64,000 bases of DNA from Candidatus Omnitrophota bacterium (GCA_028715415.1 JAQURX010000010.1:3668-67667); one strand, 5' to 3'; shown: positions 39,459 through 60,032, numbered from the stretch's first letter. Made by a program: numbers and translations. Notes: generated from the letters alone by a model not told the origin.

Positions 39459-39531
39459 GGGGCTGTAGCTCAGCTGGGAGAGCACTTGCATGGCATGCAA
39501 GGGGTCAGGAGTTCAATCCTCCTCAGCTCCA
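39459..39531 (+). tRNA. tRNA-Ala (anticodon GGC)
   Basis: Cloverleaf folded by hand: acceptor GGGGCTG/CAGCTCC with the G3:U70 Ala identity pair, anticodon loop atGGCat, TTCAATC T-loop, 73 nt, CCA not encoded. Confidence 0.85.
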
Positions 39532-39620
39532 CAAAATTTTTCGGACAACGAAAAATTTTGTGGCACTGAAGCGAGCGTTAAACGGCGCGACAAGCGCCGT
39601 AGCGAGCGGGAGTGCCACAA
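39529..39620 (+). other. Highly structured inter-tRNA spacer: 14-bp hairpin CACAAAATTTTTCG-gacaa-CGAAAAATTTTGTG plus GC-rich nested hairpin (GTGGCACT...AGTGCCAC enclosing ACGGCGC-gacaa-GCGCCGT); both apical loops GACAA
   Basis: Inverted repeats read directly from the sequence. Confidence 0.4.
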
Positions 39621-39631
39621 ATTATTCTTTC

Positions 39632-39714
39632 GCCGGAGTGGCGGAATGGCAGACGCAGCAGCCTCAAAAGCTGCCGAGGGCAACCTCATGGGGGTTCAAG
39701 TCCCTTCTCCGGCA
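39632..39714 (+). tRNA. tRNA-Leu (anticodon CAA), class II with long variable arm
   Basis: Acceptor GCCGGAG/CTCCGGC, anticodon loop ctCAAaa, 16-nt variable arm CGAGGGCAACCTCATG, discriminator A; 83 nt. Confidence 0.8.
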
Positions 39715-39720
39715 TTTTTT

Positions 39721-40404
39721 ATGAATAAAACTAAGCGCATTCAATGGACGCATGAACTCGCTTACGCTGTTGGCCTCATCACCACTGACGGGAATTTATC
39801 CCCAGACAAAAGACATATTCAATTTACAACTACAGACCACCAACTCGCCGAACAGTTCAATAGATGCTTAAACATTAACAGCAAAATCCAATTAACCCCT
39901 CCCTCTGGCTTTGGTAAAAAATCTGCATATAGAATTAATTTTAGCAATGTAAAACTATACAGGTGGCTTGAACAAATCGGCTTAAAACCAAGAAAAACAC
40001 ATTCTCTGGGAATAATAAAAACTCCTAAGAAATACTTTCCTGATTTTTTAAGAGGACATTTGGATGGCGATGGTTCAATATTTACCTATAAAGATAAATA
40101 TATGAACTACAAAAGACGCCGTTATACATACTCGCGCACATATACGGCATTTAATTCTAGTTCTTTTAAACACATCAATTGGATCAGAAATAATTTAAGG
40201 AAAGAATTAAATATTAAAGGGGCTTTAAATTCTTGGCTAAAACCGGAAAGAACTGTACCATTGTGGACACTAAGATTTGCTAAAAAAGACTCGTTTAAAT
40301 TATTACGCTGGCTCTACTATAAACCCAATCTATCATGTTTATCCCGCAAAAGAGAAATTGCTGAACAATTTCTAAAAAGCATTCATAAGAATATTAGAAT
40401 TTAA
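39721..40404 (+). CDS. Free-standing double-motif LAGLIDADG homing-endonuclease-family protein
   Basis: MNKTKRIQWTHELAYAVGLITTDGNL (motif 1) and FLRGHLDGDGSI (motif 2) about 100 aa apart, the single-chain LAGLIDADG architecture. ATG at 39721 is 7 nt after the tRNA-Leu 3' end. The ORF-track entry 39490..40404 is an artefactual upstream extension across the tRNAs. Confidence 0.8.
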   Translation: MNKTKRIQWTHELAYAVGLITTDGNLSPDKRHIQFTTTDHQLAEQFNRCLNINSKIQLTPPSGFGKKSAYRINFSNVKLYRWLEQIGLKPRKTHSLGIIKTPKKYFPDFLRGHLDGDGSIFTYKDKYMNYKRRRYTYSRTYTAFNSSSFKHINWIRNNLRKELNIKGALNSWLKPERTVPLWTLRFAKKDSFKLLRWLYYKPNLSCLSRKREIAEQFLKSIHKNIRI

Positions 40405-40435
40405 AAGCAGGTAGAATAATTACAATCCCGTTTTT

Positions 40436-41089
40436 TTACGACTTAATATCGGTGGAAGGCTGACGATGGTTCAAATAAGGAGATATTTTCTTCAAAATCC
40501 GCTGGGCAATAAGTTTATAACCATTGCCGTTTGGATGCAGAAAATCGCTTTTCATAGAAGGATTGGTAATAATTCCACTCATGATAGAAGGAACAAAAAT
40601 TGCCCCGTTATCTTTGGCAATTTTAAAATAAGCAGGACGGTATTCTTTCATTAACATCCCGGCGCTTACATCAACAATCGCAACCATAGCGCCTTTCTCT
40701 TGAATTCTCTCTACCATCTGCTTTATATTATTTACAGTTAGCTCCGGAGAAACCTTCCTCAAGAAATCATTCCCACCAAACTCAATAATAACTAACAAAG
40801 GATTCCTTGATAACACATCCGAATCAAGCCGTTTTAAAGCCTCAGTAGTCGTATCGCCGTCAATCCCAGCGTTAATCACTGAGAAATTGATCATCTTGGA
40901 AAGATGCACCGGGTAAGCTTCATCTGAAGTAACGCCATATCCATAGGTGATACTATCTCCAAAACAAATTATGTTTTTCCCGTTCGAACTTACATTCTTG
41001 ATTTCTTTCTTTTCACAGGCGGATAAACCAAAAACACAATAACCTAATAAAGCTATTACCAAAACTAGAATTTTATTTTTTCTGGACAT
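40436..41089 (-). CDS. SGNH/GDSL hydrolase lipoprotein (TesA/arylesterase-like)
   Basis: Lipobox LSAC; block I IICFGDSITYG, block III GGNDF, block V DFLHPNGNGY. Confidence 0.75.
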   Translation of the reverse strand: MSRKNKILVLVIALLGYCVFGLSACEKKEIKNVSSNGKNIICFGDSITYGYGVTSDEAYPVHLSKMINFSVINAGIDGDTTTEALKRLDSDVLSRNPLLVIIEFGGNDFLRKVSPELTVNNIKQMVERIQEKGAMVAIVDVSAGMLMKEYRPAYFKIAKDNGAIFVPSIMSGIITNPSMKSDFLHPNGNGYKLIAQRILKKISPYLNHRQPSTDIKS

Positions 41090-42113
41090 GTCTTAACCTT
41101 AGTTGCCCGCAGGCTGCATCAATATCCTCCCCACGGGATTTCCTTAAAGTAACATTGACTTGCGCATTTTTTAAAAAATCCTGAAAGATCAGAATCTCAG
41201 ATTTACTTGGCGGCTCTATGCCTAATTCCTTAACAGGATTGGCCGGGATAAGATTAACCTTACAATCTATTCCCTCTAATAGTGTAACCAATTTTTGGGC
41301 ATTTTGCAAATCAGAATTTAATCCCTTGATTAAAACATACTCAAAAGTTATTTGCCGGTTAGTCTTTGCATTATACTCTCTTACCGCTTTCATCAGGTCT
41401 TTAAGCGGGTATTTCTTATTTATCGGCATTAAGCTTGAGCGTATTTTATCATCCGCAGCATGCAAAGAAACAGATAATTCAAACTGGAGATTTTCATCTT
41501 GGAGTTTTTTAATCCCCGGGATAAACCCGCTGGTTGAGATTGTAATTCTGCGCGCCCCTATGTTAAGGCTGTAAGAAGCATTGATTATTCTTATTGCTTT
41601 TAAGACATTTTCGTAGTTATCTAAAGGCTCCCCTGTGCCCATAAAAACAATATGAGTTAGTTTATTTTCAGAAGAGCTGTCTTTTATGCAAAGGATCTCA
41701 TCAATAATCTCAGAGACACTTAAATTCCTTTTAAACCCCAATAGGCCGCTTGCGCAAAAACGGCAGCCAAACTTACACCCGACTTGCGATGAAACACAGC
41801 CTGTTACCCTGTCGGAAACAGGAATTATGACGCCCTCAACAACACTTTTATCGCTTAGCTCAAAAAGAAGTTTTTTTGTCCCGTCGCTTGATTCCAAACA
41901 TTGAACCAGGTCCAAAGAGGAAACAGAAAACTCTTTATTTAATTTTTCCCTTAGATCCTGAGAAAGATCGCTCATTTTAAGAAAGTCTCTCAGGCCTCTC
42001 TGGTATATCCAACGAAAAACCTGCTTTGCGTGAAAAGCAGGTTTCCCCCATTTCTTAAAAACATCCTCTAATTCTTCTAAATTTAAATCTTTAACATCAG
42101 GCATATTGATCAA
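41073..42113 (-). CDS. rlmN: Radical SAM 23S rRNA/tRNA adenine C2-methyltransferase RlmN
   Basis: 346 aa, CxxxCxxC cluster GCKFGCRFC, RlmN N-terminal HAKQVFRWIYQ motif, conserved C-terminal Cys. Confidence 0.8.
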   Translation of the reverse strand: MINMPDVKDLNLEELEDVFKKWGKPAFHAKQVFRWIYQRGLRDFLKMSDLSQDLREKLNKEFSVSSLDLVQCLESSDGTKKLLFELSDKSVVEGVIIPVSDRVTGCVSSQVGCKFGCRFCASGLLGFKRNLSVSEIIDEILCIKDSSSENKLTHIVFMGTGEPLDNYENVLKAIRIINASYSLNIGARRITISTSGFIPGIKKLQDENLQFELSVSLHAADDKIRSSLMPINKKYPLKDLMKAVREYNAKTNRQITFEYVLIKGLNSDLQNAQKLVTLLEGIDCKVNLIPANPVKELGIEPPSKSEILIFQDFLKNAQVNVTLRKSRGEDIDAACGQLRLRHVQKK

Positions 42114-43669
42114 CTAATCTTTTGGCTCTCTTGGCAGCTGCGCTTAAGGCTTTCTTTATCAATCTTTCCAACTCTATTTTTGGGAAGCGTAGACGAAAAT
42201 TCAAAATAATGCGGAATCTTAAAATGCGCCAAATGCTGTTTTAAAAATGATCGCATCTCATCATCGGCTAGCTCCTCTCCTTCTTTTGGAGTAATAAAAG
42301 CCTTTGGGACTTCCCCTCTTAATTTATCCGGAATACCGATTACCGCGGCTTCCTTTACTTTCGGATGGCGCTGGATAACTTCTTCCAACTCTGGAGCAAA
42401 TACAATTTCCCCTGCAACTTTAATCATCTCTTTGATTCTACCGACGATAGAATACCTTCCGCCCTTATCCCGCTTAACCACATCTCCGGTCTTAAACCAA
42501 CCGTCAGCAGTCAAAACGCTTTTAGTTAATTCGGGCTCTTTGTAATAACCGGATGTGACAGCTTTTCCTTTTATCCAAAGCTCGCCTTCTAATTCACCCT
42601 TTAGCTCATTACCATCAAGATCTACAATTTTAACTTCGGTCCCAGGAGGAAACTTACCGGTATGCTCAATTTCTCTTGTATTTGTACCGGTAGGTAAAAA
42701 AGTATTGGGGGCTGCGGTTTCAGTCATCCCCCAGCCATTTAAAAGGTAAGCATTAGGACAGACCTTATGGAACCTCTCAAGTAAAACAGGAGAAGACGGG
42801 GCGCCAAAAACAACCGCGTATCTTAAAGAAGAAAGGTCAAATTTATCGTAATCTTTAAGCGATAATACCGCCACATACATTGAAGGAACAATACAAAAAA
42901 TCGTCAATTTATATTTTTCAATGTTCTTAAGAAAATCTAATGGTTGGAAACGCTCCATTAAAACCAGCGTCGTGCCAAAATAAAGCATAAAAAGCATATA
43001 ATCAAGCCCGCCGACGTGAGAAAAAGGAACCCCCGCGCAAAGAAAGCTATCTTTTTCGCTTACCTTTAAGAAATATTCTAGAGTTTTAATTGGATTACCG
43101 AGATGTCCGTAATTAAGCATTACTCCTTTAGGATGCCCGGTTGAGCCTGAAGTATAAAAAATTGCTGATTCGTCTAGTTCATCTATTTTTTCGTTAACTA
43201 TGTTTCCTTGCTTATTAAGCAATTCATTCCAAGATAAAAAGGCTTCTTGCGTAGGATTGAAAACTACAATTTTCTGAAGCTTCGGGCATTTAGACTTTAG
43301 ATTATTAAAATCCAGCCCTCTTCTCTCCTGTGCGATAAGAACCTTGGTATCGCTATGATTAATGAAATTAATAATTTCTTCCTCAGTAAGCATAAAATCT
43401 AAAGGAACACATACACCGCGTAAAACAAATACCCCGAGAAAGCTATAGATATACTCCGGGATATTTGGAAGAAAAATTGCTATCTTTTCGCCCTTTAAAA
43501 CACCAAGCGAAGATAAGCCCTTTGCAACCTGCAAAGAAAAATCATTTAGCTGCTTATAAGTGATAACCACACCTTCGGATGAAACTTCCTGAGTATGGGA
43601 TTTAAAGATAATTGCCGGTTTGTTCGGAAATAACTTTACATCTTTTTCAAGAGCTTGTGCAAAATTCAT
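42110..43669 (-). CDS. AMP-dependent acyl-CoA synthetase/ligase
   Basis: 519 aa, AMP-binding signature IFYTSGSTGHPKGVM, adenylation core motifs. Confidence 0.8.
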   Translation of the reverse strand: MNFAQALEKDVKLFPNKPAIIFKSHTQEVSSEGVVITYKQLNDFSLQVAKGLSSLGVLKGEKIAIFLPNIPEYIYSFLGVFVLRGVCVPLDFMLTEEEIINFINHSDTKVLIAQERRGLDFNNLKSKCPKLQKIVVFNPTQEAFLSWNELLNKQGNIVNEKIDELDESAIFYTSGSTGHPKGVMLNYGHLGNPIKTLEYFLKVSEKDSFLCAGVPFSHVGGLDYMLFMLYFGTTLVLMERFQPLDFLKNIEKYKLTIFCIVPSMYVAVLSLKDYDKFDLSSLRYAVVFGAPSSPVLLERFHKVCPNAYLLNGWGMTETAAPNTFLPTGTNTREIEHTGKFPPGTEVKIVDLDGNELKGELEGELWIKGKAVTSGYYKEPELTKSVLTADGWFKTGDVVKRDKGGRYSIVGRIKEMIKVAGEIVFAPELEEVIQRHPKVKEAAVIGIPDKLRGEVPKAFITPKEGEELADDEMRSFLKQHLAHFKIPHYFEFSSTLPKNRVGKIDKESLKRSCQESQKIS

Positions 43670-43684
43670 AATCCCTCCCGATAC

Positions 43685-45181
43685 CTAAAAACCGTACCAA
43701 TAATTAATTAAAGGTTTCTCACCTTGAGCTTTATCTTGAATTACATTTTTAATCCGGGTGTATTCTAAAAAGCCTTCTTTTCCTAATTCTTTCCCAAAGC
43801 CACTCTGCTTAAACCCGCCATAAGGAACTTCATTAAAAAACATCCCGTAAGTATTAACCCAGATTGTTCCTGCATTTATTTTACCGGCTAATTCGCTTGC
43901 TTTTATTTCATCTTTTGCCCAGATACAACCTGCAAGTGCAAAATTAGAAGCGTTAGCAAGCTCTACCGCCTCGGAAATGCTTGAGAATTTGCTTATGCAG
44001 GCAACCGGCCCAAAAACTTCTTCCTTAAAGATTTGCATCTGAGGCGAAACTTCAGTAATTACAGTAGGTTCAAAGAAAAATCCTGCTTTCAAAGCTTCAT
44101 CCTGCGGGATTTTGCCGCCACAAAGCACCTTTGCGCCTTCTTGCTTTGCTTTCTCCACAAAACCAATTACTTTATTTCTCTGTGACTCAGAAATTAAAGG
44201 CCCCATTTGAGTTTCAAAATCACTGCCAACCTCAAGCTTTATTCGTTTCGCTTTTTCAACAAAATCATTTATGAATTTATCGTATATGCTATCCTGAACA
44301 AAAATTCGCGACATCGCAGTACACATCTGGCCTTGATTTAAAAATATAGAACACAACGACCCATTAACCGCTAATTCAATATCGGCGTCGGACAAAACTA
44401 TGCTTGCTGACTTTCCGCCTAATTCCATTATTGCTTTTTTTACATTTACCGAAGAATATTCTGCAATCTGCCTGCCAACCTCATTACTTCCGGTAAAAGA
44501 AATCATATCAACACGCTTATCAGAACAAAGTAGTTTTCCTAATTTCTCTCCGCTCCCATTTATAATGTTTACAACTCCTTTGGGAAAGCTAGCTGCATGA
44601 ATAATTTTAGCTAAATATAGCGCTGTTAATGGAGTCAGGCTTGAAGGCTTTAGGATAACGGTGTTTCCCGCGGCAAGTGCCTGGGCTAATTTCCATGAAG
44701 CAATTAATAAAGGATAATTCCACGGTACAATAAGGACTACTACACCAACAGGTTCCCGGGTAAGCCGGCTGTCGGATTTTGAAATCTGAGTATTAATTGA
44801 AATTTTTTCCTCACTGAGGAATTTTCCAAAATTATTAGCAAAATAATTAAAAGTTTCTGCTGCTGACGGGATATCCATAAAAGTAGATTCTTTTATTGGC
44901 TTTCCATTATTTAGAGTTTCAAGTTGAGCAAATTCTGCAGCATTATCAAGAATGCCTTGTGAAATCTTTAAAATATAGTTTTTGCGTTCTTCCAAAGAAA
45001 TCTTCGGCCAAGTCCCTTTATCAAAAGCCTCTCTTGCGCCTGCTAAAGCCAATTCAACATCCTGTTCAGAAGCAACCGGAACTTCAGCAATGATTTCTTG
45101 TGAAGCAGGATTAATTATTTTTTGCTTTGCCTGCGAATCTTTAAACTCACCGTTAATATAAAGAAGGTATTTTTCTTGCAT
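43685..45181 (-). CDS. NAD(P)-dependent aldehyde dehydrogenase
   Basis: 498 aa; ELGGKSA catalytic-Glu motif, FTGSNEVGRQIA, catalytic Cys region QGQMCTAMSR. Confidence 0.85.
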   Translation of the reverse strand: MQEKYLLYINGEFKDSQAKQKIINPASQEIIAEVPVASEQDVELALAGAREAFDKGTWPKISLEERKNYILKISQGILDNAAEFAQLETLNNGKPIKESTFMDIPSAAETFNYFANNFGKFLSEEKISINTQISKSDSRLTREPVGVVVLIVPWNYPLLIASWKLAQALAAGNTVILKPSSLTPLTALYLAKIIHAASFPKGVVNIINGSGEKLGKLLCSDKRVDMISFTGSNEVGRQIAEYSSVNVKKAIMELGGKSASIVLSDADIELAVNGSLCSIFLNQGQMCTAMSRIFVQDSIYDKFINDFVEKAKRIKLEVGSDFETQMGPLISESQRNKVIGFVEKAKQEGAKVLCGGKIPQDEALKAGFFFEPTVITEVSPQMQIFKEEVFGPVACISKFSSISEAVELANASNFALAGCIWAKDEIKASELAGKINAGTIWVNTYGMFFNEVPYGGFKQSGFGKELGKEGFLEYTRIKNVIQDKAQGEKPLINYWYGF

Positions 45182-45183
45182 AA

Positions 45184-46185
45184 TTATTTAAACCTAACCA
45201 TAGTAAATAATTTAAACAACCTGCTAAAAGGAACATACCATTTGGAAAGTTGCCCCAATTGCCCGGATAATTTCATTTTGCCCTGAGTTACTGCGACGAA
45301 TGAATCGAGTTTGCCTAAAAAAACCTGCTCCCAAATATCTTTTGGAGCGCTGATAATAAAAGGGGCATCGGCATCGCTATCTAATCTGATAATCCTGCCT
45401 TTTTCAAAATTAAATTTATAAACAGCATCTGTTCCATCAAGCTTTATAGCAAGCTTTACAGTTAAATCAAGCTCCTTGCCTTTTGTTGCAATGAATTCAT
45501 CCTTATTAACCAAATCTACAATTGCCTGGATATGTTCTCTGGAAAACATTGGATACGCAGTTTCATGTTTAGTTAAATTATCCTTTAAAGCATTATCCAA
45601 ATCATCAAGCACATCTTTTTTAAATAACCTTGCTACAGCGGCAACCCTGATTGCTTCTTCTAAAGCCTCAGTCAAGCTAAGCGCATCTTCAAATTTTTCC
45701 CCAATAGCAATTGAGCCGTGATTCTTAAGCACGACGAGATTATTTGTCTTTAAGGCTTCAATTACCGGCTGAGGATTTGTTACAGTGGGAGTCTCCTGTG
45801 GAATTACCGGGACATCTCCTAAATAAAATTTGGTTTCAAAAGTTAAGGCTTTAAGCGATGAACAGACCGCAAAATAACCATTAATTATAGGTGGATGCGC
45901 ATGGATTACAACTTTTGCAGAAGAATTTTTATAAACTAAGCTGTGTAAAGGAAGTTCTGAACTAGGCTTAATACCCCCCTCAACTGTTCCGGAATTTAGA
46001 TCAACCTTAACTATATCAGCATCTTTCAACTGGCCTAAAGAAGTCCCAGTTGCAGTAATTAAAATTGATTCGTTATCAATGCGGCAGCTTAAGTTTCCCG
46101 ATTTTGCTACAGTCAAACCGACTTCATAAAGCCTCTTTCCAACCTTGATTATCTGCTCCTTTAAAACCTTTTCATTATCAGACAT
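45184..46185 (-). CDS. Class II aldolase/adducin-family protein fused to C-terminal SCP2-like domain
   Basis: N-terminal about 200 aa with metal-binding HAHPP...H pattern of fuculose-1-P aldolase/MtnB family; C-terminal about 120 aa ends TQGKMKLSGQLGQLSKW (SCP2 sterol-carrier-like). Confidence 0.6.
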   Translation of the reverse strand: MSDNEKVLKEQIIKVGKRLYEVGLTVAKSGNLSCRIDNESILITATGTSLGQLKDADIVKVDLNSGTVEGGIKPSSELPLHSLVYKNSSAKVVIHAHPPIINGYFAVCSSLKALTFETKFYLGDVPVIPQETPTVTNPQPVIEALKTNNLVVLKNHGSIAIGEKFEDALSLTEALEEAIRVAAVARLFKKDVLDDLDNALKDNLTKHETAYPMFSREHIQAIVDLVNKDEFIATKGKELDLTVKLAIKLDGTDAVYKFNFEKGRIIRLDSDADAPFIISAPKDIWEQVFLGKLDSFVAVTQGKMKLSGQLGQLSKWYVPFSRLFKLFTMVRFK

Positions 46186-46186
46186 T

Positions 46187-47122
46187 TTATACCTCTAAAT
46201 AAATGTGCTCTGCGATTAATTCATTTGGCGTTATATCAAAAGCCGGATAATATGCCTTTGCGTTTTTTGGAGCAAGGCAAAGCCCCTGAAATTCCAATAA
46301 TTCTTTATCAGGCCTTATTTCAATCTTAATGTCATTTCCTGTTTTTGCGTGGGATGGCGGCGGGCACAACACATAAAAAGGAATATTAAAGTGTTTGGCA
46401 AGTAAAGCAATTTGAAAGGTCCCGATTTTATTAGCGATGTCACCGTTTTGGGCTAAATTATCCGCGCCGACTAATACTTTACTGATTTTTCCCTCAAACA
46501 TTACCTGCGCAACCATATTATCTGTAATGATTGTTACAGGAAATTTTGCTTTCTGCAGCTCCCATGCTGTTAAACGCGAACCCTGAAGATACGGCCTGGT
46601 TTCAGTAACAAAAAAACTTACTTTTTTATTTTCCGCCCTGCAATATTCTCCGATTAGAGGAAGCAGCCCGCTGACATTGCAATGCGTAAGGATTACATCA
46701 CCGTCATTTAGCAGTTTGCTTGCTTTCTCCGCCTGAAGTATGCGTTTATTTTTCAGGCCTTCTAAAAAACCTAAGATGCATTTCTCTAACGGCATGTTTT
46801 TTTCAGCCCAACCTAACACCATGTCAGTTAAGAATTTAAATGACAGTGTCGGACGGGTAGCATTAATCGCCTCTGCAATTTTCTTTAAATCTGGCATTAA
46901 ATCTTTCTTACCCTTACTCTTGTTGATCTCAAGCAAAAAGATGTAAAAAACCAGGATTACCTGCCCAACAGCACGCGTTTTCATCTCTTTTATTGCCCTA
47001 CATGCCTGCTTGTAAGTTGTTGCCTTGATATATTTAACTTTATGAGGCAGCAAAGTTTCATCAAGAATATAAATTGCATTGTCTTTGAAACGGATCGGCC
47101 AGAAAAGTTCTGAGAATTCCAT
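46187..47122 (-). CDS. mtnA: MtnA/eIF-2B-family sugar-phosphate isomerase (methylthioribose-1-P or 5-deoxyribose-1-P isomerase)
   Basis: 311 aa, ILTHCNVSG and VGADNLAQNGDIANKIGTFQIALLAKHFNIPFYVLCP, the conserved core of the MtnA/e2B2 family. Confidence 0.65.
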   Translation of the reverse strand: MEFSELFWPIRFKDNAIYILDETLLPHKVKYIKATTYKQACRAIKEMKTRAVGQVILVFYIFLLEINKSKGKKDLMPDLKKIAEAINATRPTLSFKFLTDMVLGWAEKNMPLEKCILGFLEGLKNKRILQAEKASKLLNDGDVILTHCNVSGLLPLIGEYCRAENKKVSFFVTETRPYLQGSRLTAWELQKAKFPVTIITDNMVAQVMFEGKISKVLVGADNLAQNGDIANKIGTFQIALLAKHFNIPFYVLCPPPSHAKTGNDIKIEIRPDKELLEFQGLCLAPKNAKAYYPAFDITPNELIAEHIYLEV

Positions 47123-47128
47123 AATTAA

Positions 47129-47596
47129 TTATTCACCTTTCGGTTGGGTTGCTTGTAGCTTCTCTTTTTCATTCTTACGGATATCCTGATAATATTTTAT
47201 CTGCTCGGGGAACCTTAAATCGTCCTTGTTTAAATATCTGAAAAAGCAGATTAGAATGATATTAGACATATCCTCATTTTCATAAATCCCTAAGCCGTTA
47301 AAATATTTCTTTAATGGAGAATTATCAGGTTCAATCCATTTTCTGATCATCCATTGGCCAATTCCAAGGTGGAATTTAGCGAGAATTTGGTCATCTGCGG
47401 TCTTCCTGATATCAGACATTTCTTCATCAGAAAGATTTTTCTTTAAAGCATCAAAACATTCATCGATACTTCTTGGGATTTTTGACTGCTTTTTTACAGA
47501 TGCAACTGACTCTTCTTGGCCGTTTTTCCCTTCCGCTGCAAAGCTTAAACTATAAATTGCTAAAGCAACGACGAAGATAGAAAATTTTCTCAGCAT
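47129..47596 (-). CDS. Secreted hypothetical protein
   Basis: 155 aa, signal peptide, no recognisable motif. Confidence 0.3.
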   Translation of the reverse strand: MLRKFSIFVVALAIYSLSFAAEGKNGQEESVASVKKQSKIPRSIDECFDALKKNLSDEEMSDIRKTADDQILAKFHLGIGQWMIRKWIEPDNSPLKKYFNGLGIYENEDMSNIILICFFRYLNKDDLRFPEQIKYYQDIRKNEKEKLQATQPKGE

Positions 47597-47609
47597 ACCT
47601 CTCCTCCGA

Positions 47610-48359
47610 TTATTTTCCTTCTAATTTCTTAACTGTTTCAAGAGCAATTGTAATCAAGTTCGACTCTGCCATGTAATACATCGGATTCATAAATCCCATT
47701 TCACCGGTAATAACATTATCGCTTACTGCCAAAATTGACCCGGCCTTTACTTTGTAAGTCTGGGCGATAGTTAAAAGCGTTGAAGAAACCATATCTACTG
47801 CCATAGCTCCTTCTTTACGTTTTGCTTCAACTATTTCTCTTGTTTCGCGTAAAAGCGCATCAGTTGTCCATGCTGTGCCGCGGTGTACATTTAATCCCAT
47901 GCCTTTTGCGATTTCAAACATGGTATCGGAAATCTTCTTATCCGCAACTGTCTTAAAATCTTTATCAACATAATAAGGCGTTACCCCGTCGCCGCGGATA
48001 ACTTTATCAACAATAAATAAATCTCCAACCTTAATATTCTCATCAAGCGCACCGCAAGTTCCAATACGGATAATATTCTGAATTCCGGCATTACACATAA
48101 CTTCTGAAGTAATTGATGTATCAGTTGAGAACCTTCCTCCGTTAATTCCGGTGATTTTAATCCCTTGATACATGCCGGTATACATTGTGTATTCCATAAA
48201 AGAGAAATTCTTTACCGGATTCTCAATTTTCTTCATTAAGACTTCTAACCTATCCTTTGGCCCGGGAACAATTGCATATTTCCCCACATCCTGTGGACGA
48301 AGCTGCACCATTTGTGTTAAATCCTTGCCTGTCATGTGAATCTCTTTTTGCATTTGCAT
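47610..48359 (-). CDS. PNP/UDP-family nucleoside phosphorylase (candidate MTA/5'-deoxyadenosine phosphorylase)
   Basis: About 240 aa, RIGTCGAL and MVSSTLLTIAQ blocks align with the DeoD/Udp/MtnN phosphorylase fold (RVGSCGA, EMEAAG equivalents). Confidence 0.6.
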   Translation of the reverse strand: MQMQKEIHMTGKDLTQMVQLRPQDVGKYAIVPGPKDRLEVLMKKIENPVKNFSFMEYTMYTGMYQGIKITGINGGRFSTDTSITSEVMCNAGIQNIIRIGTCGALDENIKVGDLFIVDKVIRGDGVTPYYVDKDFKTVADKKISDTMFEIAKGMGLNVHRGTAWTTDALLRETREIVEAKRKEGAMAVDMVSSTLLTIAQTYKVKAGSILAVSDNVITGEMGFMNPMYYMAESNLITIALETVKKLEGK

Positions 48360-48410
48360 TTCTTTCTCCCTTTTTGATTGTTAATAAATCTATATTTTGT
48401 TTAAATATAA

Positions 48411-48851
48411 TTACTTTTTAGCTTCGTATGGTTCAAAATGTAAATATTCTGATTCTAAAGGTGCTAACTTCGGTTCACCTACTCCAAATATTTCATATAA
48501 ACCTTGGGAGTTCTCTGGAGGCACTGTCGGATTCTTACACCAACCAACAGTAAATTTTAATATTTTAACTTGATTATTTCCACCTTTAATCCATTCTCTA
48601 ACCACAAAGGTAAAAGTTGCAAAATCTTTGTTTAATGGATCTGTTTTAAAATTATGTTCTATATTCTCAATTGTCCCCACTGCTATCCAATCAGAAACTT
48701 GCAGGCATTTTTCTTCAGAATATTTACCAGAAACATTCCCTCCGTAAATAGGAAGGTTTTTCTCACAAACCACCCCTTTATATTCGCAATCTTTGGTGGC
48801 AAAAGCATAAACTGGCAATAAGAATAGAACTACGAGTAGGTATTTTTTCAT
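48411..48851 (-). CDS. Secreted Cys-containing hypothetical protein
   Basis: 146 aa, signal peptide MKKYLLVVLFLLPVYAFA. Confidence 0.3.
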   Translation of the reverse strand: MKKYLLVVLFLLPVYAFATKDCEYKGVVCEKNLPIYGGNVSGKYSEEKCLQVSDWIAVGTIENIEHNFKTDPLNKDFATFTFVVREWIKGGNNQVKILKFTVGWCKNPTVPPENSQGLYEIFGVGEPKLAPLESEYLHFEPYEAKK

Positions 48852-48857
48852 TTATTA

Positions 48858-49766
48858 TTATCTAAACATTCCTTCTAAATTTCCACCCAAGATATCAGCT
48901 TTGTCTTCCTCGCTAATATCTAAATTCTTTACCGCAGCAATACCTGCGGAGAAATCTTTTTTTGCCGGCCAGTCGCTGCCCCACAATAAATGCTTAGGCC
49001 CTAGTAAATCAAGCGCCAATAAAAAATTAGTTTTAACTTTATCACCGCTTGTATCTACATAAATATTCTTTAAAAAGTCAGTAGGATTTCCTTTTAGATC
49101 CTTTACAAAATTTATCCCGCGCAGCATTTGATAAGTTGTGTCAAACCTGTGCTGTAAAAATGGGATTGCTCCTCCAAAATGCGCAAAAATGAATTTTACC
49201 TTGGGAAAATCGCGCAATATATCAGACATTAAAAGCTTGCCAATACACATCGTAGTATCAAAAACATATTCGATTACCGGAGTAAGCAAAGGATCGTTAA
49301 CCCTTTCAAATCCAATAGGATTAACTATCTGGGAATGCACAAAAATCGGCAGATTCTGCTCCTGGGCCTGCCTATATATAGGTAAGAACATAGGGTCATC
49401 CAGATACATCCCATTGTAGCTTGAAGCAAGAGAAATTGCCCTAAACCCAAGCTCTCCGGTAACCCTGGTTAATTCATCCTGAAGATTCTTGGCACTATCA
49501 ACCGGTAATACAGCAGCACCAATAAACTTATCAGGGTAACGCTTTAAAATCTTAGCTACATTATCATTAAAGAGCCGAGCTACAAGAGAAATACTTCCTA
49601 GCTTTAAATGTGCATCAGAAGTCGGATAACTTAACACCGCTTTATCAATCCCAGCTTCCCCCATCAACTTAACTTGAGACTCGATATCCCCCCAAGCTTT
49701 AGAGAAAAAATGGGCGTTCGTTATTATCTCATCCGGCAACCAATGTGAGTGCGCGTCAATTATCAT
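48858..49766 (-). CDS. Amidohydrolase-2 (ACMSD-like) family metal-dependent hydrolase/decarboxylase
   Basis: 302 aa, MIIDAHSHW N-terminal metal-binding motif typical of PF04909. Confidence 0.65.
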   Translation of the reverse strand: MIIDAHSHWLPDEIITNAHFFSKAWGDIESQVKLMGEAGIDKAVLSYPTSDAHLKLGSISLVARLFNDNVAKILKRYPDKFIGAAVLPVDSAKNLQDELTRVTGELGFRAISLASSYNGMYLDDPMFLPIYRQAQEQNLPIFVHSQIVNPIGFERVNDPLLTPVIEYVFDTTMCIGKLLMSDILRDFPKVKFIFAHFGGAIPFLQHRFDTTYQMLRGINFVKDLKGNPTDFLKNIYVDTSGDKVKTNFLLALDLLGPKHLLWGSDWPAKKDFSAGIAAVKNLDISEEDKADILGGNLEGMFR

Positions 49767-50224
49767 TAATGCTCCGTACTCTTTAAAATTCTTTCTGTCA
49801 TTTCAATTTCATAGAGAAACTTTATTTCCGCTAAAACTTTTTTCCCGAATTCTTTTACAATTACGCTTTCAATTGCCTTTAACTTTAAAACCAGAAAATA
49901 ATACTCTGGCCTAAGCCTGGCCCCATCAAATTTTAAATTATTTCCCTCAACCAGTTTATTCTGGATATAAACTTTAAACTCATCAATATATTTCTGAGCA
50001 AGCTTTGGCTTATCCAGCTTATTTAAATCTTTTAAGATAATCTTATCAATTTCAACCTGCGTAAACTTGCGTTCAATTTTATCAAGCGCTTCTTTTGTTG
50101 TTTTGTAGAACCACACTAAGTAGCGTTTCTTTAAGTTTTTCGTATCGAGCTTGTCCACAGTTGCCTCCTGCTTTATTGTGCCATTCCTGCGCAAATTGTC
50201 ATCCCTGCGAAAGCAGGGATCCAC
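49766..50224 (-). CDS. Hypothetical protein (annotated N-terminus reads through an intergenic palindromic repeat; the real start is probably internal)
   Basis: 152-aa ORF; its first about 10 codons are encoded by the hairpin repeat at 50198-50221. Confidence 0.3.
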   Translation of the reverse strand: MDPCFRRDDNLRRNGTIKQEATVDKLDTKNLKKRYLVWFYKTTKEALDKIERKFTQVEIDKIILKDLNKLDKPKLAQKYIDEFKVYIQNKLVEGNNLKFDGARLRPEYYFLVLKLKAIESVIVKEFGKKVLAEIKFLYEIEMTERILKSTEH

Positions 50225-50259
50225 TACATCGTGTAGATTCCCGCTTTCGCGGGAATGAC
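50198..50259. repeat. Pair of inverted 24-nt hairpin motifs (GTCATCCCTGCGAAAGCAGGGATC / GATTCCCGCTTTCGCGGGAATGAC), REP/BIME-like
   Basis: Each unit is a 7-bp GC stem with GAAA-type loop. Unit 2 is the near reverse complement of unit 1 (2 mismatches), separated by the 14-nt segment cactacatcgtgta (50222-50235, internally taca..tgta). Confidence 0.6.
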
Positions 50260-50267
50260 AGCCTTTT

Positions 50268-51044
50268 TCATTTATTCGGATGTTCCTGCTTAAACGGAAT
50301 TACCGGAGCTGTCCAGGGAGTCTGCTGATTGATAATCGCAATCTCCAAAGGGCAAACATTCGCGGGAACAGTTAAAGCAAATTTTACTGCATTTTCAATT
50401 GCTTCGGTAGACATAAGCCTTGAGGCATCCCCGGTAATTTCTTTTAATTTACCGGTTAAATCAGTGTCTGTTACCCCCGGCAATAAAGATGTAACCTTAA
50501 TCCCATGATCACGCACCTCCCAGAATAAACCTTTTAGGAAAGCACGCAGCCCAACTTTTAATGAACTATAGACGATAAAATTTCTTGGCAAAGGATCGCA
50601 AAGTGTTGAACCTGAAACCATATTAATAATTGCGCCTGACTTAGCCTTAATCATATCATTAATGACTAAGCGAATTAACCGCACATATCCTAAATAATTA
50701 GTGTGCGCTAATCTTTCAAAATCTTCTATCGGTTGATCCTGAAAAGGATATTGGCTGGATACACCTGCGTTATTGATCAAAATATCGATTTTGCCAAATT
50801 TCTCTTTAGTTTTATTTACTAAATTATCCAAATCCTCTAACTTTGTGACATCACAGGCGATTGGCAATACCTCAACATTATATTTCTTTGCAATCTCATC
50901 TGCAGTTTCTTTTAACGGTTCAATTTGGCGCGCGGCAATAGCAACATTTACGCCTAAACTCGCTACTGTTGAAGCTAATGCCTTGCCAATCCCGCGGCTA
51001 GCTCCTGTTACAATCGCTACCTTACCTTTTAAATTATCACTCAT
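50268..51044 (-). CDS. Short-chain dehydrogenase/reductase (SDR), candidate ketoreductase
   Basis: KVAIVTGASRGIGK Rossmann motif, NNAG, catalytic YxxxK (YSSLK); likely start at MSDNL (51044). Confidence 0.8.
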   Translation of the reverse strand: MSDNLKGKVAIVTGASRGIGKALASTVASLGVNVAIAARQIEPLKETADEIAKKYNVEVLPIACDVTKLEDLDNLVNKTKEKFGKIDILINNAGVSSQYPFQDQPIEDFERLAHTNYLGYVRLIRLVINDMIKAKSGAIINMVSGSTLCDPLPRNFIVYSSLKVGLRAFLKGLFWEVRDHGIKVTSLLPGVTDTDLTGKLKEITGDASRLMSTEAIENAVKFALTVPANVCPLEIAIINQQTPWTAPVIPFKQEHPNK

Positions 51045-52164
51045 TACTCCTCCCTGGTTTAATCGGTGAAACAAAAAGCAATATTATTAATCCCAAACAA
51101 AAAATAATAAAACCAAAAGTAAAACTTTTTTGTAAAATTATGCCGCTTAATGCAGCTCCTAAGCCACCGGATACAAAACGCACGCTGCTATTTAAACTTG
51201 CCGCCTCATTTATAGAATCCCGCGGCAGGTCAGTAAGCATAGTTGATAGGCCTGCGTGGTTAAAAGTCCAGCCCAAACCCCAGATAACCATAATTATAGC
51301 AAAGACAAAAAGCGGAAGATGGAAAATCAAAAGAAAAATACTTAAAATCATTAAAATAATTCCTAAATCCACTGTCTTTACTCTGCCAAGCTTATCTGCA
51401 AGGTCTCCTCCGATAACCTCACCAAAAACTCCGCTTAAGCTTGTCAAAGTAATGAGCATACTGATTAAGAATTGCCCAAAACAAAACTTGGTTGAGAAAT
51501 AAACCCCTAACCACTGCTGAACCCCATGGTAAATTAAGCTGATAAAGAAGATATAAGTAAAAATTGCGAATATCTTTTTATCTCTTAAAACATCAAGGTA
51601 ATTTACCTTAAATTTAGTTAGATCACTTTTAAAACTAGGCAAATAAAAAAACATTACAATGCTCAAAATAAATCCAATTATCGCAGGAAGTATAAAGATA
51701 AGTCGCCAATAAATTATTCCGCTTAAAAATAACCCGGCAAGCGAAGCGACAAAGGTTGCGCCAAAAAATATTCCTACAAATTTTCCGCGTTTATCCGGCT
51801 CCATGTGCTTTGCTATTAAAACAAGCCCGAGGGGGATAACGGAAGCGCCGAAAAAACCCATTAAGAATCTTGCTAAGAAAAGAGTTTTAATATTTGCAGC
51901 AAAACCTGCTAAAAGATTAGCAACAGAGAAGAAAAAGATGGAAATCAACTCTACTTTTCTTGCATCTACCGCCCTGATTAATGGCCCGTATAAAAGTGCA
52001 GCTAAGCCATAAGGCAGCATATACATCCAGATAATCTTACCAGCTATAAACTGAGAAAGAACAAATTCATGGGCAATTGAAGGCACTATAGCTGCGCTTG
52101 CAGCGACATTAAACGAAAGAACAGCACCTTCTAAACAAAGGATGATAAAAGTAAATTTCTTCAC
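51037..52164 (-). CDS. MFS transporter (candidate exporter of the cluster product)
   Basis: 375 aa, 12 TM, MFS loop signature. Confidence 0.7.
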   Translation of the reverse strand: MKKFTFIILCLEGAVLSFNVAASAAIVPSIAHEFVLSQFIAGKIIWMYMLPYGLAALLYGPLIRAVDARKVELISIFFFSVANLLAGFAANIKTLFLARFLMGFFGASVIPLGLVLIAKHMEPDKRGKFVGIFFGATFVASLAGLFLSGIIYWRLIFILPAIIGFILSIVMFFYLPSFKSDLTKFKVNYLDVLRDKKIFAIFTYIFFISLIYHGVQQWLGVYFSTKFCFGQFLISMLITLTSLSGVFGEVIGGDLADKLGRVKTVDLGIILMILSIFLLIFHLPLFVFAIIMVIWGLGWTFNHAGLSTMLTDLPRDSINEAASLNSSVRFVSGGLGAALSGIILQKSFTFGFIIFCLGLIILLFVSPIKPGRSNE

Positions 52165-52604
52165 TTACTACTAGCTTCTCGCTCAATTACCTTTTTAAAT
52201 ATCTCTAAGTTTTCTTTGGAATGCTTATTAATAAACCCTTCCACCTGCTCGTCGTTAAACTTAGCTTTATCATCCATCTCAAAGTGTTGAATCCAAGTCA
52301 ACTCTATCCCCTGAGGTTTCGGCGTATAAAGCCAGATAATCTTCATGTATTTAAAAGGGAATTTCGGCTCATGCCTTTCGGCATAGGCAAAATACTTATC
52401 TTTAAAAAGCAGCCTCCAGGATACCCAGGATTTATCTTCATCATCAGTTAAACGGAAGGTAATTTTGTTATCTTTCTTCTCAACTACCTCTGCCTTTTTA
52501 TATTCTCCGCCGAATAGCTCAGTCCAGCGCGGGATATCATTAGAAATATCAAAAATTAATTCATAAGGTGCGTTAATAATTATGGAATTACAAGTATGCC
52601 CCAT
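52161..52604 (-). CDS. SRPBCC-superfamily protein (polyketide cyclase/aromatase TcmN-like fold)
   Basis: 147 aa, size and hydrophobic-pocket pattern of Polyketide_cyc2/START-like proteins. Confidence 0.5.
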   Translation of the reverse strand: MGHTCNSIIINAPYELIFDISNDIPRWTELFGGEYKKAEVVEKKDNKITFRLTDDEDKSWVSWRLLFKDKYFAYAERHEPKFPFKYMKIIWLYTPKPQGIELTWIQHFEMDDKAKFNDEQVEGFINKHSKENLEIFKKVIEREASSK

Positions 52605-52619
52605 TTTATTTCTCCTTTT

Positions 52620-52937
52620 TTACTCTTTCCCGAATAAGCTTAATAAAATTGCCAAGTCTTTCTTTGCGCTTAATGAATGAGGCGCATTTTTTGGCATAAA
52701 AATAAAAACCCCCGGCTTCATTTTAATCTTCTTTCCATTTAAAACAAAAATCCCTTCTCCTTTTAACACGGTAACTGCTGCTTCGCGGGTAGATGTATGC
52801 TCGGAGATATCGCTTCCTTTTGCTAAACACATCAAAGTATAATTAGAAGTGGGAGTCTTGACCAAAACTTTGCTGAAAATCCCTTCTTTGGGGAATTCCA
52901 TCATTTTTTCTAACTCTTTGAATATAGAATTTATCAT
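52620..52937 (-). CDS. Cupin-2 domain protein (TcmJ-like)
   Basis: 105 aa, two cupin motifs (G(X)5H..E...G and PxxxxH: ISEHTSTREAAVTVLKGEG...PKNAPHS). Confidence 0.6.
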   Translation of the reverse strand: MINSIFKELEKMMEFPKEGIFSKVLVKTPTSNYTLMCLAKGSDISEHTSTREAAVTVLKGEGIFVLNGKKIKMKPGVFIFMPKNAPHSLSAKKDLAILLSLFGKE

Positions 52938-52938
52938 T

Positions 52939-53736
52939 TTATATAATTGCTACAACTCTTGACCAGGCAGCTCCTGTATTTTTAATCTTTACCGGGAAAC
53001 AAATGATTTTAAATCCGGAGGAAGGCAGCTTTTCTAAATTTGCTAACCTTTCAATATGGATAAATTCTCTCTTGCGGCCGTAAAAATGCGCTGGATACAA
53101 ATACTTGATGTCTTTCTTCTCTAAGAATTCCTTAAGCATAAATCTATAAGGCCTATCTATCCCCATTGTATCTACCCCGAAGATTTTAATACCTCTATCT
53201 AAGAGATAATCAATCGCAGAAATATCAACCCCGGGATAGTCTGAGAAATATTTCGGCCCACCATATAACTTATCCGCCCCCGTATGCAGAATTACAATAT
53301 CCAATGGCTTTAATTTATAATTTACCTTTGCAAGGCCTGCTTCAATATCAGAAGCAGCAATAGTTTCGTTTGGTTTTTTATGAGTTAAATCAAGTTTTAC
53401 CCCATCTTGATAACAATATTCAAGGGGGATTTCTTCTGCAGTTTTTGCTGGGCGATTCTCTGAACGAGAACCGTAATGAAATGAATAATCAAGGTGAGTG
53501 CCGATATGAACCGGAGAATGCACAACTTCTAAAGAAAGAAACTCTTCATCCGGAAGGTCTTCTTTTTTTAAGATGCGTTTCCCTAAAGCATATTTAATCT
53601 TGCCTAAAAGAGTCTTGCCCATGATAACGCGGTTAAACTTCTCTACACCTGCCGAGTGAGTTACGCGTTCAATAGCTACTTTGTGTACTTCAAAAGCTTT
53701 ATCGTCTATAGGAAGGCTTAAGTCAATTATTTGCAT
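52939..53736 (-). CDS. Putative cyclase family protein (PF04199, kynurenine-formamidase-like fold)
   Basis: 265 aa with HSPVHIGTHLDYSFHYG (HxGTHxDxPxH) metal-binding motif. Confidence 0.65.
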   Translation of the reverse strand: MQIIDLSLPIDDKAFEVHKVAIERVTHSAGVEKFNRVIMGKTLLGKIKYALGKRILKKEDLPDEEFLSLEVVHSPVHIGTHLDYSFHYGSRSENRPAKTAEEIPLEYCYQDGVKLDLTHKKPNETIAASDIEAGLAKVNYKLKPLDIVILHTGADKLYGGPKYFSDYPGVDISAIDYLLDRGIKIFGVDTMGIDRPYRFMLKEFLEKKDIKYLYPAHFYGRKREFIHIERLANLEKLPSSGFKIICFPVKIKNTGAAWSRVVAII

Positions 53737-53758
53737 AGAGAATACCCCTACAAAAAGA

Positions 53759-54004: not shown

Positions 54005-54008
54005 CTCC

Positions 54009-58565: not shown

Positions 58566-58566
58566 A

Positions 58567-59870: not shown

Positions 59871-60012
59871 AATCTAACTCCCTATATTGGTTAAAGTTAA
59901 CCCCTTGTTTTAAAATATAGTAAAATTTTACTAATCAAATTTTAGTATAGTATACCTTTAAATCAATTAAAGTCAAGAAGAAATTGAAGAAAATTTACTC
60001 TGGAAGTAAAAC

Positions 60013-60032
60013 GGACAGAATTAATTCTGTCC
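60013..60032. promoter_or_regulatory. Perfect 20-bp palindrome GGACAGAATTAATTCTGTCC in the divergent intergenic region (operator-like)
   Basis: Exact dyad symmetry read directly from the sequence. Confidence 0.4.

Follow-up and report, generated by a model that had tools for sequence, protein, structure and literature searches.

Closest described pathways

The dihydroxyacetone phosphate (DHAP) shunts known so far are three-enzyme pathways of salvage or growth. Both the DHAP shunt of Rhodospirillum rubrum and extraintestinal pathogenic (ExPEC) Escherichia coli, in which MtnP (or MtnN plus MtnK) acts together with MtnA and the aldolase Ald2, and 5-deoxyribose salvage clusters such as that of the Drd pathway of Bacillus thuringiensis (DrdK, DrdI and DrdA), have been described (PMC10986504, PMC6079011). 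A locus resembling these is present in a Candidatus Omnitrophota bacterium, in a stretch of 64,000 nucleotides (GCA_028715415.1, JAQURX010000010.1:3668-67667; referred to here as the window), where a cassette of five genes encodes a purine nucleoside phosphorylase-like (PNP-like) protein, an MtnA-like isomerase, a class II aldolase fused to an SCP2 lipid-binding domain (Ald-SCP2), an aldehyde dehydrogenase (ALDH) and an AMP-forming ligase. The locus has in common with both of these pathways an operon of nucleoside-cleaving, MtnA-family and FucA-like class II aldolase genes and the predicted products DHAP and an aldehyde. It differs from them in its phosphorylase, which belongs to the hexameric type of NP-I proteins as a divergent member and is not a methylthioadenosine (MTA) phosphorylase (MTAP), with the changes E181 to V and R43' to M; in the addition of the SCP2 domain, the ALDH and a ligase resembling 4-coumarate-CoA ligase (4CL) and FadD; in its position within a cluster that encodes a B12-binding radical S-adenosylmethionine (SAM) enzyme (B12-rSAM), a ketosynthase (KS) with its KS-beta and an acyl carrier protein (ACP); and in a catalytically dead 'half IF-2B' subunit that is added in distant versions.

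The closest precedent for a biosynthetic use of this enzyme sequence is the fluoroacetate branch of Streptomyces cattleya, which has the PNP FlB, a 5-FDRP isomerase, an aldolase and a fluoroacetaldehyde dehydrogenase, the C4'-C5' unit of a modified adenosine ending, together with its 5' substituent, as an acid (PMC6079011, PMC6302742). That branch has no SCP2 domain and no ligase, KS or ACP follow-up, and its FlB is of MTAP type, unlike the protein described here. The window, for its part, showed no gene resembling a fluorinase or chlorinase.

We propose, at a probability that we put at about 0.45, that a SAM-derived purine nucleoside of 5'-deoxy type is processed by the Omnitrophota cassette through DHAP-shunt-type chemistry, and that the cassette is dedicated to the B12-rSAM/KS/ACP cluster. 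What the analysis shows is the gene content, the catalytic residues, the SCP2 fold and a co-clustering that outlasts changes of gene order; the direction of flux, a nucleoside as the substrate, a hydrophobic aldehyde and the hand-over to KS/ACP are inferred. The PNP-like enzyme would remove the base to leave a 5-substituted ribose-1-phosphate, the MtnA-like isomerase would convert this to a ribulose-1-phosphate, and the aldolase would cleave the latter into DHAP and an aldehyde, the non-polar part of which would be held by the fused SCP2 domain. Flux would continue through oxidation of the aldehyde to an acid by the ALDH and activation of the acid as a thioester by the ligase, most plausibly for hand-over as a starter to the KS/ACP machinery.

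Organization and conservation of the cassette

ORF calls place all coding between 42110 and 48359 on the minus strand, in the order of transcription PNP_UDP_1, DUF6794, IF-2B/MtnA-like, Ald-SCP2, ALDH and AMP-binding ligase, followed by RlmN and a GDSL esterase; from the PNP_UDP_1 gene to RlmN, consecutive genes are spaced -4 to +15 bp apart. An earlier note, made from the sequence alone, had read these genes as a putative operon for the salvage of 5'-deoxyadenosine or MTA. All of its ORFs are present on this strand, 42110 and 48359 are exact ORF ends, and E-values of 1e-33 to 1e-167 exclude chance for the domain assignments; the families that it named are as it gave them, although the DUF6794 gene between phosphorylase and isomerase was overlooked. 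The genes are not a free-standing salvage operon, however. They form part of a co-directional minus-strand array of 23 genes (59870 to 40436, spacing -53 to +51 bp), and the five cassette genes are one conserved module of an uncharacterized Omnitrophota gene cluster of about 19 kb that also contains the B12-rSAM and type II fatty acid synthase/polyketide synthase (FAS/PKS)-like genes (Table 1).

Hundreds of distinct Ald-SCP2 proteins are found across two deep Omnitrophota lineages, and the loci that encode them were compared in two sets. The close set consists of 60 species-level Omnitrophota loci in which the fusion is 60-77% identical to that of the window, and the distant set was drawn from 50%-identity cluster representatives, which gave about 30 further full-length fusion clusters at 33-43% identity, with genomic context for eight. 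Throughout the close set the MtnA-like gene adjoins that for Ald-SCP2 wherever both are present, and the ALDH gene follows within about 2 kb; the PNP gene lies directly upstream in about 43 of the 60 loci. The ligase, RlmN and GDSL genes are usually together, with RlmN after the ligase in most loci and GDSL in about two-thirds.

The second deep lineage is represented by loci L061 and L064 (42-43% aldolase identity), whose genes are ordered PadR, ligase, PNP, IF-2B, small IF-2B, Ald-SCP2, ALDH, B12-rSAM, DUF2621-like, an unknown gene, ApbA, TIGR04076 (L064 only), KS, KS, ACP, cyclase, SRPBCC and MFS, whereas the order upstream of the cassette in the window is DUF2621-like, ApbA, TIGR04076, KS-alpha, KS-beta, B12-rSAM, ACP, cyclase, cupin, SRPBCC, MFS, SDR and amidohydrolase_2. 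The families are thus the same and the order is different, with the ligase at the opposite end of the cassette, and co-clustering is kept under the rearrangement. Locus L066 (39%) retains just B12-rSAM, PNP, IF-2B, small IF-2B, Ald-SCP2 and ALDH. In L062, which is labelled Syntrophaceae, the genes are those for an LpxL-like acyltransferase, PNP, IF-2B, small IF-2B and Ald-SCP2. Across close and distant loci the PNP, isomerase, aldolase and ALDH genes are neighbours in most cases, and the stable core consists of PNP-like, MtnA-like and Ald-SCP2, to which ALDH and B12-rSAM are usually added. We count the ligase as part of the unit because its orthologues in L061 and L064 (45-47% identity) have moved with the cassette to the other end; RlmN lies outside it. 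We had taken L061 and L064 as members of other phyla, and hence as cases of cross-phylum conservation, but this was withdrawn when relatives of the L061 protein proved also to be labelled Omnitrophota.

The phosphorylase-like protein

The PNP-like protein is the most conserved in the cassette (81-94% identity within the lineage, 42-61% in distant loci) and sits in the hexameric uridine phosphorylase (UP)/DeoD branch as a distinct subfamily. Its NCBIfam scores are far under the cutoffs (in bits, score/cutoff: UP TIGR01718 121.1/280.3, DeoD 96-99/230-232, MTAP TIGR01694 21.6/274.85), and JGI labels its orthologues 'uridine phosphorylase', whereas in PGAP the protein is a 'hypothetical protein'. 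When the protein is aligned with DeoD and Udp, residues R24, R87, T90 and M180 and the purine-type catalytic D204 (E. coli DeoD numbering) are seen to be kept, while the Glu that binds the ribose 2'- and 3'-hydroxyls (E181/E198 in the superfamily members compared) is V and the phosphate-binding Arg of the neighbouring subunit (R43'/R48) is M. The same motifs are kept in 40 close orthologues, and E181 to V/I and R43' to M/F/G/W are found in the window protein and in all five distant orthologues. An apparent change of His to Met at the 5'-OH-binding His depends on the alignment, a conserved His being present nine residues upstream, and we have not used it as evidence.

These features set the protein apart from DeoD, with R43' and E181 lost and the scores below cutoff, and from the uridine phosphorylases, as there is no insertion with Gln166/Arg168 and the Arg223 position is occupied by SDN as in purine nucleoside phosphorylases; the earlier note's refuting case, a phosphorylase with strict specificity for uridine or purine, is therefore not borne out. 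Nor is it the MtnP/MTAP of a DHAP shunt, given the TIGR01694 score, the altered sugar and phosphate site and the situation in L066, where a canonical MTAP gene (TIGR01694 278.2 against a cutoff of 274.85) lies beside murB and only 3 kb from the PNP-like gene, so that the PNP-like protein is not simply the MTA phosphorylase of that organism. Family scans found no kinase among the array genes that might represent the MtnN plus MtnK alternative.

There is also a likeness to MqnB (futalosine hydrolase) and HpnG (hopanoid), in which a radical SAM enzyme produces a hydrophobic, 5'-C-linked adenosine and an enzyme of the PNP_UDP_1 fold then strips off its base. The scores for these models are, however, far under their cutoffs (HpnG 50.6 bits, futalosine hydrolase 25.7 bits), and the pathways keep or cyclize the ribose, without isomerase and aldolase cleavage. 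The radical SAM enzymes concerned, MqnE and HpnH, are not B12-dependent.

The isomerase and ribose catabolism

The isomerase passes the subfamily model TIGR00524 (199.5 against 185.85) and does not reach the MtnA models proper (TIGR00512 equivalog 230/279, NF004326 subfamily 245/271). The catalytic residues of Bacillus subtilis MtnA are Cys160 and Asp240. Both are present here, in the motifs THCN and VGAD, when the protein is aligned to the MtnA structures 1t9k and 2yrf, its best PDB matches, and in these residues and in TIGR00524 it corresponds to the MtnA/DrdI-type isomerase of the DHAP shunt and Drd clusters. The ribose-1,5-bisphosphate (R15P) isomerase model TIGR00511 gives 113.7 bits against a cutoff of 314.1, and by score the protein is of MtnA type and not an R15P isomerase; grouping with the latter was the outcome that the earlier note had named as counting against a shunt. 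Neither RuBisCO nor AMP phosphorylase was found among the screened ORFs of at least 110 aa, seven ORFs of that size being unscreened.

The scores bear directly on a catabolic explanation, in which the nucleoside ribose would pass as ribose-1-phosphate to ribulose-1-phosphate and then to DHAP and glycolaldehyde, with glycolate as the product, so that the route would be a bacterial counterpart of the non-carboxylating pentose bisphosphate pathway. Scavenging from hosts is a mode of life proposed for Omnitrophota, halophilic archaea have a ribulose-1-phosphate (Ru1P) aldolase that yields glycolaldehyde (PMC9700705), and the aldolase does match the archaeal Ru1P aldolase model, albeit weakly at 72.5 bits. 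That value is set against a cutoff of 300, however, and the R15P isomerase model scores about 114 bits against 230-245 for the MtnA models; moreover, the ribose-1-phosphate kinase and the ribulose bisphosphate phosphatase are absent, the PNP-like protein is without the Glu for the ribose hydroxyls, and the SCP2 domain, the 4CL-like ligase and the B12-rSAM/KS context would all go unexplained. We consider this explanation very improbable.

In distant lineages a 'half IF-2B' protein of 141-172 aa is encoded between the isomerase and Ald-SCP2, and the window is without such a gene. Its homology is with the C-terminal half of MtnA, it has no catalytic Asp, and it may be a non-catalytic partner subunit; in L068 it and Ald-SCP2 are the sole cassette genes.

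The aldolase-SCP2 fusion

The Ald-SCP2 protein, which is 100% identical to a protein from a Candidatus Omnitrophica metagenome-assembled genome (MAG), consists of an aldolase domain (about aa 1-190) and an SCP2 domain (about aa 205-333), with a low-confidence linker between them. The aldolase domain has retained its metal His triad and catalytic Glu, with conserved PSSE, HAH and NHG motifs. Foldseek puts FucA, YgbL and DrdA 6btd at much the same distance from it (TM score normalized to target 0.75-0.85) and does not separate these from MtnB-like neighbours; the DrdA match has an E-value of 4.6e-15 and a TM score of 0.80, and those of FucA and YgbL are equal or better. The nearest non-fused relatives (n=30) match FucA-like, aldolase, epimerase and MtnB models of NCBIfam alike, and the one that was tabulated is under every equivalog cutoff.

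The earlier note had described the C-terminal region as SCP2-like, and here the Pfam, PDB-profile and fold comparisons agree. With 22.3 bits, the Pfam match itself (PF02036) only just passes its gathering score of 21.3, but a profile built from 26 C-terminal domains matched SCP2-fold chains in all eight of its PDB hits (best E-value 2.5e-5), and an AlphaFold2 (AF2) model of residues 205-333 (pLDDT 92.3) superimposes on the Thermus SCP2 protein 2cx7 with a TM score of 0.82 and an rmsd of 1.9 A, with UbiJ-SCP2, MFE-2 SCP2 and alkylsulfatase SCP2 domains among its other fold matches. By profile and predicted fold the domain is a true SCP2 domain. In UbiJ, MFE-2 and the alkylsulfatases SdsA1 and Pisa1, which share the fold (Foldseek TM 0.5-0.8), SCP2 is attached to, or is a partner of, enzymes whose substrates are partly non-polar. 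For a class II aldolase we found no published report of such a fusion, and a full-text search with both terms together yielded no paper.

In E. coli FucA the active site is covered on its aldehyde side by the C-terminal tail of the protein. By analogy, a domain appended at the aldolase C-terminus would be well placed to hold the aldehyde moiety; we infer this placement from the analogy because the inter-domain geometry of the full-length AF2 model (pLDDT 90) is unreliable, with a pTM of 0.59 and a pLDDT of about 59 in linker residues 190-215.

It is extremely improbable, in our view, that the aldolase-fold protein is instead an MtnB-type methylthioribulose-1-phosphate dehydratase acting in anaerobic methionine salvage proper. 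MtnB has the same fold and metal site and its models match at 69-76 bits, and in one subclade a class IV aminotransferase, possibly a ketomethylthiobutyrate (KMTB) transaminase, takes the place of PNP; yet the MtnB scores lie below those of the aldolase models (127 bits) and far under their own cutoffs, no homologues of MtnC, MtnD, MtnW or MtnX were found in the family scans (the match of the array's cupin to ARD being just 17 bits, and the cupin present in four loci), and an ALDH immediately downstream implies that the product is an aldehyde.

The dehydrogenase and the ligase

The ALDH is of the non-acylating betaine-aldehyde dehydrogenase (BADH)/ALDH2-like kind and is under every NCBIfam equivalog cutoff, its nearest PDB entries being betaine-aldehyde, phenylacetaldehyde and ALDH2-type enzymes. 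The ligase falls in the 4CL/FadD/luciferase class of AMP-forming acyl-CoA (or acyl-ACP) ligases: its best NCBIfam model is that of the long-chain-fatty-acid CoA ligase PRK06187 (403/476), and the nearest PDB entries are 4-coumarate-CoA ligases, along with luciferases and FadD enzymes. Acs-type enzymes are of about 650 aa, against 519 aa here, and the acetate-CoA ligase model NF003313 gives 241.5 where 729 would be needed. It is therefore unlikely that the ligase serves to recover acetate as acetyl-CoA, the role suggested for it in the earlier note. We think that the aldehyde-derived acid is probably a committed, non-polar intermediate rather than acetate, because the ALDH and a ligase of the 4CL/FadD type are kept in the unit, the aldolase carries SCP2, and KS, dead KS and ACP are encoded alongside.

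A housekeeping DHAP shunt, in which 5'-deoxyadenosine or MTA would be converted to DHAP and acetaldehyde or methylthioacetaldehyde, the acetate recovered as acetyl-CoA and the link to radical SAM enzymes explained by removal of their by-product, is a serious rival account of the cassette, though a less likely one. The trio of phosphorylase, MtnA-like isomerase and class II aldolase does match defined Drd and DHAP-shunt clusters (PMC6079011, PMC10986504), known shunt aldolases take several aldehydes, and a B12-rSAM, which would release 5'-deoxyadenosine, is always in the neighbourhood. Against this, the ligase is not of the Acs class, the SCP2 domain is left without a role, the phosphorylase is not of MTAP type and has an altered sugar site, L066 has its bona fide MTAP close by, and the L066 operon would amount to one 'real' enzyme with five handlers of its by-product; RlmN, too, is not conserved with the cassette. 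What remains of the match to the DHAP shunt is the families, their order and adjacency and the catalytic motifs, without the MTAP-type phosphorylase or the stand-alone salvage role.

The order of the last two enzymes bears on the direction of the pathway: where an ANL ligase comes after a non-acylating ALDH, thermodynamics favours the passage from aldehyde through acid to thioester. An anabolic use in reverse, in which a lipid or polyketide aldehyde would be joined to DHAP to give a long-chain ketose-1-phosphate, then an aldose-1-phosphate and finally, by the PNP-like protein or an acyltransferase, a nucleoside- or polyol-lipid head group, is in keeping with the reversibility of class II aldolase reactions and would give SCP2 a lipid aldehyde to hold; the sugar site of the PNP-like protein is atypical, and an LpxL-like acyltransferase gene adjoins the cassette in L062. 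We nevertheless regard it as improbable, because the ALDH and acid-activating ligase fit consumption of an aldehyde after cleavage and not its supply, and family scans found no acyl-CoA or acyl-ACP reductase in the cluster.

The radical SAM enzyme and the ketosynthase pair

The radical SAM gene that accompanies the cassette is that of the B12-rSAM, which lies beside the ALDH gene in L061 and L064 and directly upstream of PNP in L066 and has orthologues in 27 loci overall. Its product is under the cutoffs of both of the models that it resembles (BchE 207.7 bits, HpnJ 155.6 bits). The radical SAM enzyme pointed out in the earlier note was RlmN, correctly placed after the ligase in the window; RlmN does not lie beside the cassette in L061, L062, L064 or L066, and it was rejected as a functional partner because it is missing from the reordered clusters L061, L064 and L066, in each of which the B12-rSAM is present.

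The two ketosynthases are 63-73% identical to those of L061 and L064. KS-alpha has an intact C/H/H triad and KS-beta has R/D/N at the same columns; with the whole catalytic triad gone, the latter resembles, as judged from the alignment, a chain-length factor, and together with the discrete ACP the two have the make-up of a type II PKS/FAS-like pair of KS and chain-length factor, although the typical residue of such factors is Gln and here there is Arg. Type II PKS/FAS-like clusters with adenylating starter loading (aryl polyene; cispentacin AmcB/F/G/H) likewise combine a KS, an inactive KS and an ACP with an ANL ligase and a B12-rSAM, but matches to the AmcF model (149-158 bits) and to the ladderane B12-rSAM model (72 bits) are far under the cutoffs. 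Omnitrophota MAGs have been reported to contain antiSMASH 'ladderane-like' biosynthetic gene clusters (BGCs) of no known function (bioRxiv 10.1101/2022.12.20.521206), and the present cluster probably belongs to this class. The literature that we searched contained no described cluster with a PNP/MtnA/aldolase-SCP2/ALDH module, and nothing relevant on methylthioribose or deoxyadenosine in Omnitrophota, on TIGR04076, or on MtnA together with ketosynthase and radical SAM. As far as we have found, the fusion of an aldolase to a lipid-binding domain, the rebuilt sugar pocket of the phosphorylase and the dead 'half isomerase' of some lineages are new.

Nature of the substrate and strength of the proposal

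The nucleoside could be either a radical SAM by-product (5'-deoxyadenosine or MTA) or one that is made or modified by the B12-rSAM of the cluster, and the sequence does not decide between them. We lean towards the second, because L066 consists of one B12-rSAM and five cassette genes and because the PNP pocket is rebuilt. A more specific version, unlikely as it stands, is that the B12-rSAM makes or modifies a 5'-substituted hydrophobic adenosine, either through transfer of 5'-deoxyadenosyl onto an acceptor, lipid or aromatic, or through alkylation of a nucleoside, and that the cassette leaves C4'-C5' and the substituent as X-CH2-CHO, then as the acid and the thioester. The ribose of SAM would then serve as a two-carbon building block for an unusual KS/ACP starter unit, and SCP2 would keep its non-polar substituent in place at the aldolase.

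The proposal that the cassette performs shunt-type chemistry for the cluster is favoured by the retention in the PNP-like protein of Asp204 and of two phosphate-binding Arg residues, without the uridine phosphorylase insertion, but several observations weigh against it. With the near-universal ribose-binding Glu and the neighbour-subunit Arg both lost, the PNP-like protein may fall outside the conventional nucleoside phosphorylases, or may even be no phosphorylase, and neither hidden Markov models nor fold comparison put the aldolase domain in Ald2/DrdA over other FucA-like clades. A class IV aminotransferase-like gene replaces the adjacent PNP in about 13 of the 60 close loci, in about one-third of them the ALDH gene and the ligase group lie 1-5 kb apart with other genes in between, and in L065, L067, L068 and L069 the fusion occurs with one or no cassette partner. 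Finally, the full cluster is apparently confined to Omnitrophota, and for this reason some of the co-clustering may reflect synteny passed on by descent.

Chemistry similar to that of the DHAP shunts thus appears to be built into a widespread cluster of an almost uncultured phylum. If it is true that the module feeds a nucleoside-derived acid to KS and ACP, this would be a new route to polyketide or lipid starter units and the first functional handle on the 'ladderane-like' clusters of anaerobic candidate phyla.

The aminotransferase-like gene is BCAT/ADC-lyase-like and below all cutoffs. Besides L006 and L045 (Table 1), it occupies the PNP position in L005, L010, L015, L016, L034, L038, L044, L050, L055, L059 and L060, and in this subclade the B12-rSAM gene is found just upstream of a divergent amidohydrolase_2.

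Other features of the array and its surroundings

The genes at the upstream end of the array (57960-59870) have orthologues in L061 and L064, apart from that for the TIGR04076 protein, which is found only in L064, where it is 56% identical to that of the window in spite of the rearranged order.

Table 1. Coordinates of the cluster genes and other features in the window and, where a locus is named, in related loci
Feature	Location	Strand	Remarks
PilZ gene	60170-60520		Divergent from the array
Non-coding gap	59871-60169		300 bp
DUF2621-like small protein	59568-59870	-	Upstream end of array; family scans
ApbA/PanE-like reductase	58567-59571	-	Family scans
TIGR04076-family protein	57960-58565	-	Two tandem TIGR04076 domains; no Pfam family
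KS-alpha	56697-57959	-	Intact Cys/His/His triad (pairwise alignment)
KS-beta	55469-56704	-	Cys to Arg, His to Asp, His to Asn at triad columns
B12-binding radical SAM enzyme, BchE/HpnJ-like	54009-55469	-	PF02310, PF04055
Acyl carrier protein	53759-54061	-	PF00550, E 1.3e-10; DS motif visible
Cyclase	52939-53736	-	PF04199; conserved in L061, L064
Cupin, 105 aa	52620-52937	-	17-bit ARD match; found in 4 loci
SRPBCC protein	52161-52604	-	Conserved in L061, L064
MFS transporter	51037-52164	-	Conserved in L061, L064
SDR	50268-51074	-	Conserved in close lineage only
152-aa ORF	49766-50224	-	
Amidohydrolase_2	48858-49766	-	Conserved in close lineage only
Signal-peptide ORF, 146 aa	48411-48851	-	Without family
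PNP/UDP-family (hexameric NP-I type) phosphorylase-like protein, 249 aa	47610-48359	-	PF01048, E 1.5e-33
DUF6794 small secreted protein, 155 aa	47129-47596	-	Signal peptide; PF20594, E 5.6e-22
MtnA-like (eIF-2B family) putative sugar-1-phosphate aldose-ketose isomerase, 311 aa	46187-47122	-	PF01008, E 1.8e-55
Class II (FucA/Ald2/DrdA-like) metal aldolase + SCP2, 333 aa	45184-46185	-	Pfam aldolase E 1.8e-37; SCP2 at nt 45187-45573
NAD(P)+ aldehyde dehydrogenase, non-acylating, 498 aa	43685-45181	-	PF00171, E 1.3e-167
AMP-forming acyl-CoA (or acyl-ACP) ligase, 519 aa	42110-43669	-	PF00501 (E 2.1e-83), PF13193
RlmN	41073-42113	-	TIGR00048 429.9 vs 290; overlaps ligase gene by 4 bp
LAGLIDADG_3 homing-endonuclease-like ORF	~39718-40404	+	Free-standing
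LpxL-like lipid A acyltransferase and PF04008 genes	6714-8162	-	Adjoining
Half IF-2B gene	L061 9583-10008		
Half IF-2B gene	L062 9361-9879		
Half IF-2B gene	L064 9306-9785		
Half IF-2B gene	L066 9568-10008		
Half IF-2B gene	L068 9528-10028		
Canonical MTAP	L066 13961-14746	-	Beside murB
Aminotransferase-like gene	L006 6190-7020		
Aminotransferase-like gene	L045 6242-7048		

The DUF6794 gene is a lineage-specific insertion and probably lies outside the pathway, since no homologue was found in any of the 69 related loci searched. The second signal-peptide ORF is likewise inserted within the conserved cluster, and none of the 69 loci has a homologue of it.

The gap between the array and the divergent PilZ gene is the sole sizeable one upstream of the array and is likely to be the start of the cluster. 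It contains a sigma-70-like match (TTGACT-16-TATACT, minus strand, 59976-59949), although the whole scan did no better than with shuffled sequence: promoter and terminator consensus searches of 40300-60200 gave 56 and 14 matches against 55.5 and 17.9 in shuffled controls and are uninformative on the limits of the operon. At the downstream edge of the array, plus-strand positions 39459-40404 carry tRNA-Ala(GGC), tRNA-Leu(CAA) and then the LAGLIDADG_3 ORF, and an Rfam scan of 39000-60400 found nothing beyond the two tRNAs.

Elsewhere in the window an LpxL-like gene adjoins a PF04008 'adenosine-specific kinase' gene. We note that an LpxL-like gene is also directly upstream of the PNP-like gene in L062, which may be a coincidence.

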